Shown: one piece after another, positions 15,584-16,520 of the stretch
Position numbering within the stretch: the first letter of the stretch is position 1
Layout: each line of letters begins with the position of its first letter
Source: Escherichia coli
GTDB lineage: Bacteria > Pseudomonadota > Gammaproteobacteria > Enterobacterales > Enterobacteriaceae
Assembly (NCBI RefSeq): GCF_002854065.1
Contig: NZ_CP024147.1
Length of the DNA stretch: 64,000 nucleotides
Strand: one strand, 5' to 3'
Made by a program: the position numbers and the translations under genes
Notes under the pieces: generated by a model
Seen by the model: only the letters and a program-made list of their open reading frames with translations
Databases searched by the model: none
Told to the model about the DNA's origin: nothing

Positions 15584-16510
15584 TCAGCATGACGCATTTG
15601 AGAATGTTGAATTTACAATTGCCGACTCAGGCACTGCGGTAAGCCGCCAGTTTTTGACGGCTGACTGAAGGATTTGTTCGACGCTGAAATCCTGCCAGTG
15701 TGCTTCTACCTGCTGACCCAGAAATTGAAGTGCCGCGATTAGTACCGGACGTGGATCGCCTTTCGGCAACGCAGGCGCATGATTCTGCTTGGAAAGTTTA
15801 GCGCCTTGTGGATTAAGCGCCAGCGGCAGATGAATGTAATCTGGCACTTTCCAGCCAAAAAGCTGGTACAGCGAGATTTGCCGCACTGTCGGTTCGATCA
15901 AATCTGCCCCGCGGACAATTTCGCTCACGCCCTGGAAGTGATCATCCACCACCACCGCCAGGTTATAGGCAAACAAACCATCACGGCGATGAATAATAAA
16001 ATCTTCCCGTGCCAGTTTTTCGTCGGCGTGAATAATGCCTCGCAGCAGGTCAGTAAACTGGGTGACCGGATGCTGCTGGCGGATACGCACTGCGGCGTTG
16101 CCTGGTCCATGATGCAATTCCCGGCAATGACCGTCGTAAATACCGCCAATGCTTTGAATACGTGCACGCGTGCAGGTGCAGTAATAACTTAGTCCTTGCT
16201 CATGTAACCAGGCGAGTGCTTCGCGATAGGCGTGGTGACGTTGCGATTGCCAGAGAACATCGCCGTCCCAGTGCAGGCCGTAATGTTCCAGCTGGCGCAG
16301 GATAGTTTCTGCGGCACCGGGAACTTCACGAGGCGGGTCGATATCTTCTATGCGTACCAGCCAGCGACCTTGCCGGGCGCGAGCCTGCAAATAGCTGCCA
16401 AGCGCAGCAATCAGAGAACCAAAATGAAGCTCGCCGGAAGGAGAGGGGGCGAAGCGGCCAATATAGTGTGTGTCTGTCATCTCTTTGAACAAAAAATAAG
16501 GCGGGAGCAT
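15584..16510 (-). CDS. gluQ: Glutamyl-Q tRNA(Asp) synthetase
   Basis: 308-aa ORF, truncated GluRS-like catalytic domain; alternative start at MTDTHYIG (16480). Confidence 0.88.
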
Positions 16511-16520
16511 TTCCCGCCTG
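16490..16520 (-). terminator. Intrinsic terminator downstream of dksA
   Basis: On the minus strand: hairpin AGGCGGGA-aatgc-TCCCGCCT followed by TATTTTTTGTT; overlaps the first annotated gluQ ATG. Confidence 0.6.

Follow-up and report, generated by a model that had tools for sequence, protein, structure and literature searches.

The terminator hairpin between dksA and gluQ in Escherichia coli: read-through expression and the start codon of gluQ

Introduction

In Escherichia coli, dksA and gluQ lie one behind the other on the minus strand, and the short interval between them holds a GC-rich hairpin whose loop contains the first in-frame ATG of a 308-codon gluQ reading frame. This arrangement raises two connected questions, namely how RNA polymerase reaches gluQ and from which ATG the gene is translated. 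We addressed both in a 64,000-nucleotide stretch of E. coli DNA (contig NZ_CP024147.1), referred to here as the window, to which all coordinates apply unless MG1655 is named.

The hairpin arrangement itself is already published, having been tested in 2012 by Caballero et al. in Shigella flexneri (BMC Microbiol 12:226, PMC3542578), and transcriptome maps made since then for E. coli also show it. Termination, the lack of a separate gluQ promoter and start-codon usage are accordingly taken here from published experiments; the conservation of the hairpin, the non-conservation of the loop ATG and the absence of a Shine–Dalgarno sequence at the gluQ start are contributed by the present analysis. As a discovery the locus is of little value, and its residual worth lies in a correction of annotation.

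The dksA–gluQ locus

According to the open reading frame list and the RefSeq annotation, the genes on the minus strand follow the order thpR, sfsA, dksA, gluQ, pcnB and folK. The dksA coding sequence (16547..17002, minus strand; open reading frame list and RefSeq annotation of strain CUWW06) comprises 151 codons and a TAA stop codon (16549..16547), and its Shine–Dalgarno sequence is strong, with a calculated anti-Shine–Dalgarno duplex of -9.2 kcal/mol. An intergenic spacer of 66 nt (16481..16546, minus strand), measured from the dksA stop to the gluQRS start called by PGAP, separates it from gluQ, also named gluQRS or yadB (15584..16480, minus strand; 298 codons and a stop), which was delimited from NCBIfam, PDB and RefSeq matches. 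The gluQ product scores above the cutoffs of the NCBIfam equivalogs NF004312 (621 bits, cutoff 453) and TIGR03838 (378 bits, cutoff 277), and the E. coli YadB structure 1NZJ matches it over its full length (E-value 6e-202). On this equivalog-level similarity, the product is identified as GluQRS, the tRNA glutamyl-Q(34) synthetase, with the N-terminus MTDT(Q/H)YIG.

The 1.7-kb dksA–gluQ region is 100% identical to that of strain CUWW06 and has matches in 5424 of 5426 complete E. coli genomes, and the segment from the dksA stop to the start of the 298-codon frame has the same sequence in E. coli K-12 MG1655. Matches to the region (window 15500..17200) were also found at three places on plasmid-labelled records, and one genome carries two copies.

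Anatomy of the hairpin and U tract

The hairpin AGGCGGGA-AAUGC-UCCCGCCU (16499..16519, minus strand) begins 27 nt past the dksA stop codon. Its 5' arm (16519..16512) and 3' arm (16506..16499) form eight pairs, six of them G–C, closed by a 5-nt loop (16511..16507), and directly 3' of the stem runs the U tract UAUUUUUUG (16490..16498, minus strand), within which an RNA 3' end has been mapped in vivo at position 16495. Direct reading of 16519..16490 thus bears out the initial annotation, which had described a GC-rich hairpin and a U-tract after the dksA stop on the minus strand. The same annotation had placed the first ATG of the 308-codon frame inside the hairpin and a second one, opening MTDTHYIG, just after it. 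Both were found: the first (ATG1) at 16510..16508 and the second (ATG2), which opens the 298-codon frame, at 16480..16478, 30 nt downstream on the same strand, with the refinement that ATG1 lies in the loop and not in a paired arm.

Folded alone, the hairpin has a predicted free energy of -14.5 kcal/mol. The 96-nt region around it reaches -30.7 kcal/mol (z = -4.7), and none of 200 shuffled sequences was equally stable. A consensus terminator scan of 2.1 kb returned 5 sites against 2.6 +/- 1.7 expected, a result that is not significant on its own. The hairpin is nevertheless more than a chance match, because the 40 nt that contain it are identical across E. coli, its core is invariant in 27 species and a transcript 3' end maps to it.

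Conservation of the hairpin among Enterobacterales and their relatives

A search of 5426 complete E. coli genomes for the 40-nt segment made up of the hairpin, ATG1 and the U tract gave matches in 5420, and in 5415 the segment is identical; PGAP annotates nothing across this segment in E. coli genomes. To place the locus in a wider taxonomic frame, DksA was used in a scan with one genome per species, which yielded 80 loci from Enterobacterales, Vibrionales (Vibrionaceae) and Shewanella. The gene gluQ lies directly 3' of dksA in 74 of them. Five loci (L055, L062, L064, L069 and L073), belonging to Providencia vermicola DSM 17385, Morganella, two insect-symbiont Pantoea and one Enterobacterales MAG, have no gluQ within 2.5 kb downstream of dksA, and one further locus (L037) ends at a contig edge.

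Hairpins related in sequence to that of E. coli occur in 27 Enterobacteriaceae species. Their stem core, GGCGGG/CCCGCC, does not vary, so that all six central pairs are invariant; the loop differs (AAUGC, AUUAC, UUU, CGA, UUAGC, UCU and others), and the base of the stem and the flanks vary as well. In the alignment of these species, 88.7% of cells pair, compared with 50-55% when the partner column is slid, and double changes that keep pairing are seen at 4 of 11 pairs, located at the base and top of the stem. Selection on the hairpin is therefore suggested mainly by strict conservation amid unconserved flanks, with modest covariation at the stem ends. The spacing is uneven on the two sides: from the hairpin to the gluQ start the distance is tight (14-26 nt, sd 2.9), and from the dksA stop to the hairpin it ranges from 16 to 75 nt.

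Outside the Enterobacteriaceae, the dksA stop is likewise followed, at about 5-75 nt, by a strong hairpin (-15 to -32 kcal/mol) whose sequence is unrelated and which often lacks a U tract; examples among loci L025-L072 are those of Photorhabdus (L041-L044), Yersinia (L038, L045 and L046) and Erwinia and Pantoea (L033-L036). In some Yersiniaceae, a small GGGAG/CUCCC hairpin is present in addition, immediately ahead of the gluQ start. Many of the hairpins outside the Enterobacteriaceae were missed by the strict terminator pattern, and an energy-based search, run without a shuffled control, reported a stable hairpin in every locus; our claim of significance is limited to the 27 sequence-related hairpins.

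Termination and read-through at the hairpin

The S. flexneri dksA/gluQ-rs terminator is orthologous to the one described here: dksA is followed by a hairpin, the first AUG lies in what the authors call a 'bulge', and a second AUG comes 27 nt later (PMC3542578). The two systems also share co-transcription, the lack of a separate gluQ promoter and a start at the second AUG without an obvious Shine–Dalgarno sequence (PMC3542578). They differ at residue 5 of GluQ, which is His here (TDTH) and Gln in S. flexneri (TDTQ), and, as far as the published description goes, in nothing of substance otherwise. Co-transcription of gluQ-rs with dksA in S. flexneri was established by a 1.44-kb dksA-gluQ RT-PCR product, and in reporter fusions a deletion of the intergenic region with the hairpin increased downstream expression about 10-fold, compared with more than 2-fold for stem mutations (Caballero et al. 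2012, PMC3542578). Given that the stem mutant gave only a little over 2-fold, termination may not account for the whole of the 10-fold deletion effect.

Two transcriptome studies of E. coli K-12 bear on the same site. Conway et al. 2014 used the ligT-sfsA-dksA-yadB-pcnB-folK operon as a figure example of RNA-seq mapping, in which a dksA-specific transcription unit arises from a promoter within the operon and a terminator, likewise internal, that follows dksA, and in which pcnB has a separate promoter (PMC4161252). In the Term-seq data of Adams et al. 2021 (PMC7815308), an RNA 3' end is recorded at MG1655 160097(-) with an average count of 3,097,035, which exceeds every other value in the parts of the table considered here. 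The same entries give this end a Rho score of 1.16 ('No'), insensitivity to bicyclomycin and an intrinsic terminator score of 7.47, where a value of at least 3 suggests intrinsic termination (PMC7815308). By exact sequence identity, MG1655 160097 corresponds to window position 16495, within the U tract and 4 nt past the stem. Over 800-nt windows, the DirectRNA-seq coverage listed for this end falls from 250 upstream to 62 downstream when bicyclomycin is absent, and from 250 to 72 when it is present (PMC7815308). The apparent read-through given by these entries is roughly 25%, a figure that is coarse owing to the 800-nt windows and comparable in magnitude with the 10-fold effect seen in the reporters.

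The site therefore combines a GC-rich stem-loop, an adjoining U tract, a Rho-independent 3' end in vivo and a structure kept in evolution, as an intrinsic terminator does, and the published coverage and RT-PCR place transcripts beyond 16495, as a leaky intra-operon terminator would. Very probably, the hairpin is the Rho-independent terminator of dksA and forms a leaky barrier within the thpR(ligT)-sfsA-dksA-gluQ-pcnB-folK unit, with gluQ mRNA produced only by read-through. Published fusions, RNA-seq and Term-seq in this way support the proposal of the initial annotation that gluQ probably relies on read-through of the dksA terminator for its expression.

A hairpin at this place could also act mainly as a stabilising 3' structure that guards dksA mRNA from exonucleases once the RNA has been processed or has terminated elsewhere, without being the site of termination. 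The equally placed hairpins of Photorhabdus, Yersinia, Erwinia and Pantoea, often devoid of a U tract, accord with such a role, and the position of the tabulated 3' end, just 4 nt past the stem, suggests trimming. In E. coli, however, the U tract is near-perfect, the recorded 3' end is bicyclomycin-insensitive with a high intrinsic score, the listed coverage drops about 4-fold across the hairpin (PMC7815308), and mutation of the stem raises the downstream reporter (PMC3542578). A purely protective function is accordingly very unlikely. The very high Term-seq count also raised the idea of an Hfq-binding small RNA derived from the dksA 3' UTR, for which a literature search returned no link to dksA.

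Absence of a promoter specific to gluQ

The dependence of gluQ on read-through presupposes that no other promoter serves the gene. In S. flexneri, a fusion devoid of the dksA promoters (pVCDT, extending from dksA +58 to gluQ codon 5) showed baseline activity, from which it was concluded that gluQ-rs lacks a separate promoter (Caballero et al. 2012, PMC3542578). Our consensus promoter scan of the region gave 3 matches against 1.6 +/- 1.4 expected, which is no excess over chance, and none is usable for gluQ. One of them, the weak sigma-70-like match TTCAAA-18-TATATT (16460..16489, minus strand), is the only one downstream of the hairpin, where the initial annotation had looked to an independent promoter as the finding that would speak against read-through. 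Its -10 box falls inside gluQ, past ATG2; because of this position the match could not drive synthesis of full-length GluQ, the transcript lacking the start codon, and we judge it non-functional for gluQ.

The pVCDT insert ended before the -10 box of this match, so that its baseline activity excludes promoters upstream of the hairpin but does not extend to the site at 16489..16460. The description of the K-12 transcription-unit map, for its part, gives only the pcnB promoter and none specific to yadB (PMC4161252). That gluQ is transcribed from a promoter downstream of or overlapping the hairpin, which would make read-through irrelevant, is scarcely credible on this evidence.

The start codon of gluQ

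Transcription through the hairpin yields an RNA with two in-frame AUGs, and several lines of evidence assign the start to the second. The N-terminal sequence of S. flexneri GluQ-RS, TDTQYIGRFAP, identifies the second AUG as the start of a protein of 298 aa (PMC3542578). The protein sequenced had been over-expressed from a T7 promoter and only its predominant band was taken (PMC3542578); a minor isoform from ATG1 at native levels would be compatible with that experiment. The PGAP gluQRS coding sequence of 897 nt likewise begins at ATG2, 66 nt past dksA, and the chains in PDB entries 1NZJ and 4A91 have 298 residues, corresponding to residues 11-308 of the long frame.

Comparison among species points the same way. 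An ATG in the loop is confined to E. coli and E. albertii among the 27 hairpin-bearing Enterobacteriaceae species; it is missing from every genus outside Escherichia and from the divergent E. coli AF16 (94.7% identical), whose loop reads ATTAC, and in E. fergusonii the terminator is kept while the first methionine is absent (PMC3542578). At the position of ATG2, by comparison, most of the 27 species have an ATG at the aligned codon and the others have an adjacent one. We conclude that ATG1 is a recent, lineage-specific accident of E. coli, Shigella and E. albertii inside a selected hairpin, and not a start codon.

The contrary proposal holds that ATG1 is a genuine, possibly alternative, start giving a 308-aa isoform, and that the hairpin controls translation by burying the Shine–Dalgarno-like AGGCGGG in its 5' arm. 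It can draw on the calculated anti-Shine–Dalgarno duplex, which is better for ATG1 (-6.3 kcal/mol, with AGGCGGG) than for ATG2 (-1.7 kcal/mol), on the retention of ATG1 in 5415 of the 5426 complete E. coli genomes searched, and on the inclusion of the extension in the MG1655 annotation and in NCBIfam NF004312. Retention within E. coli is, however, explained by selection on the terminator, and the Shine–Dalgarno-like stretch has a predicted probability of being unpaired of 0.05. Upstream frames in relatives contain stops or no start codon. With only the ATG2 product recovered by N-terminal sequencing and the 298-aa form the one crystallised, initiation at ATG1 is highly improbable.

The initial annotation had suggested that the hairpin may occlude the first start codon. 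This point has become moot, ATG1 being neither the start nor paired: it lies in the loop, where its predicted probability of being unpaired is 1.00. Weak pairing of the E. coli U tract with AAAGAGAUG is predicted to mask ATG2 in read-through RNA (probability of being unpaired 0.14), and this helix was considered as a second means of occlusion. We rejected it as a conserved element, since the predicted accessibility of the start ranges from 0.03 to 0.98 across the 27 species, with a median of 0.41. Translational control by start-codon occlusion is thus not indicated at either codon, ATG1 being nonfunctional and unpaired and the pairing of ATG2 not conserved.

What is constant at ATG2 is the lack of a Shine–Dalgarno sequence. 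In 27 of 27 species none is present, the anti-Shine–Dalgarno duplex never being better than -2.3 kcal/mol and averaging +0.2 kcal/mol, which extends to the family a published remark on one species.

A proposed route to low GluQ-RS levels

Taken together, these results suggest the following sequence of events. RNA polymerases coming from the dksA promoters would transcribe the 8-bp hairpin and the U tract, and most would release at 16490-16498, generating the abundant dksA mRNA 3' end at 16495. A minority, roughly 10-25%, would read through and provide the only source of gluQ mRNA, and this RNA would be translated from ATG2 (16480) without the help of a Shine–Dalgarno sequence. Weak read-through and weak initiation would together hold GluQ-RS far below DksA under one promoter. 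The arrangement clearly illustrates how a strong gene, dksA, can share its promoter with a tRNA-modification enzyme expressed at a very low level, the two levels being separated by a leaky terminator and a start without a Shine–Dalgarno sequence. We infer that the purpose of the two weak steps is a low GluQ level.

A comparable design precedes dnaG, where a leaky intra-operon intrinsic terminator stands immediately ahead of a gene whose ribosome-binding site is unusual or weak, and a low-abundance enzyme is held below the upstream product. The likeness of this rpsU-dnaG-rpoD terminator (cited in PMC3542578) to that of dksA-gluQ is one of mechanism only, both sequence and genes being unrelated. 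The leaky terminator of E. coli recA-recX (cited in PMC3542578, about 10% read-through) likewise leaves its downstream gene to be reached only by partial read-through; unlike dksA-gluQ, it has an unrelated sequence and no start codon in the hairpin.

Regulated read-through and other possible roles

In S. flexneri, the intergenic RT-PCR product was 20-fold higher in stationary phase (PMC3542578), a rise that is not accounted for by a purely passive terminator. The site might accordingly be a regulated attenuator, at which read-through, in place of a fixed leak, responds to growth phase or stress or is set by a protein or small ligand; the hairpin would then be the expression platform of an antitermination device, either riboswitch-like or dependent on a protein. 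Caballero et al. themselves leave a riboswitch-like circuit or a binding protein possible (PMC3542578). Among the Term-seq entries considered, the counts for two growth conditions lie about 12-fold apart (3,097,035 and 254,767; PMC7815308), and the six central stem pairs are invariant in sequence across the 27 species. The difference in counts may, however, track dksA mRNA abundance, and invariant stems are expected of any selected hairpin among close relatives.

A search of 14000..18500 against Rfam at E <= 1 returned no riboswitch or leader family, the single hit being a chance snoRNA-like match in dksA (19 bits, gathering score 50), and the riboswitch search of Caballero et al. was also negative (PMC3542578). 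The flanks of the 27 species offer no conserved aptamer or antiterminator partner, because the upstream sequence is unconserved and varies from 16 to 75 nt in length. The locus resembles the riboswitches of the preQ1/queuosine pathway in having a terminator hairpin upstream of a queuosine-linked gene, and it differs from them on each of the points just given: no Rfam match, no conserved aptamer upstream and a negative search by the original authors (PMC3542578). Regulated attenuation is, in sum, an unlikely explanation, to which the stationary-phase rise lends some weight.

Besides terminating dksA transcription, the hairpin and U tract might conceivably also recruit ribosomes, as a protein S1 or standby site, or be the target of a factor that alters read-through with growth phase. 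This suggestion, which is doubtful at present, arises from the invariant core, the tight spacing to gluQ and the universal absence of a Shine–Dalgarno sequence. Were a read-through factor to exist, the GluQ-tRNA(Asp) modification would be tied to the DksA/ppGpp stress response.

Consequences for annotation

Older annotations give gluQ 308 codons because ATG1 is in frame and no stop intervenes before ATG2. The curated MG1655 record (gluQ, b0144, 159186..160112, 927 nt) still starts at ATG1, and the 308-codon frame of this record and of one NCBIfam model is 10 codons too long; a start at ATG2 corresponds to MG1655 160082. The alignment of the model concerned, NF004312 (306 positions), to the 308-aa frame begins at residue 5, compared with residues 11 and 16 for NF004314 and TIGR03838, and the model therefore seems to carry a spurious N-terminal extension. 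The extension also affects transcript mapping: in the entry of Adams et al. 2021 for the dksA terminator, the 3' end is classed as 'ORF-internal, +15' in gluQ because the MG1655 annotation starts gluQ at ATG1 (PMC7815308).

Neighbouring features

Downstream of gluQ, the pcnB start called by PGAP is an ATT at 15522..15524 (minus strand), giving a product of 465 aa, and the open reading frame list places it at a TTG at 15545. This ATT is the AUU, a non-canonical start codon, already known for poly(A) polymerase I. A promoter-like sequence, TTCTCA-17-TATGAT (15576..15604, minus strand), overlaps the last gluQ codons, and its expected start site at about 15569 corresponds to MG1655 159171, where Conway et al. 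2014 give the promoter 'S-159171' for pcnB-folK (PMC4161252).

Upstream of dksA, the sfsA-dksA interval contains a small hairpin, CTGCTATTTATAGCGG, followed by CCUCAUUUUU (17047..17072, minus strand), which shares sequence with an AT-rich -10-like box and with a GC-rich stretch immediately ahead of dksA. Among the Term-seq entries considered, an 'orphan' 3' end at MG1655 160652 corresponds to window position 17050, within this site (PMC7815308). The hairpin could be the sfsA terminator or a feature of the dksA leader.
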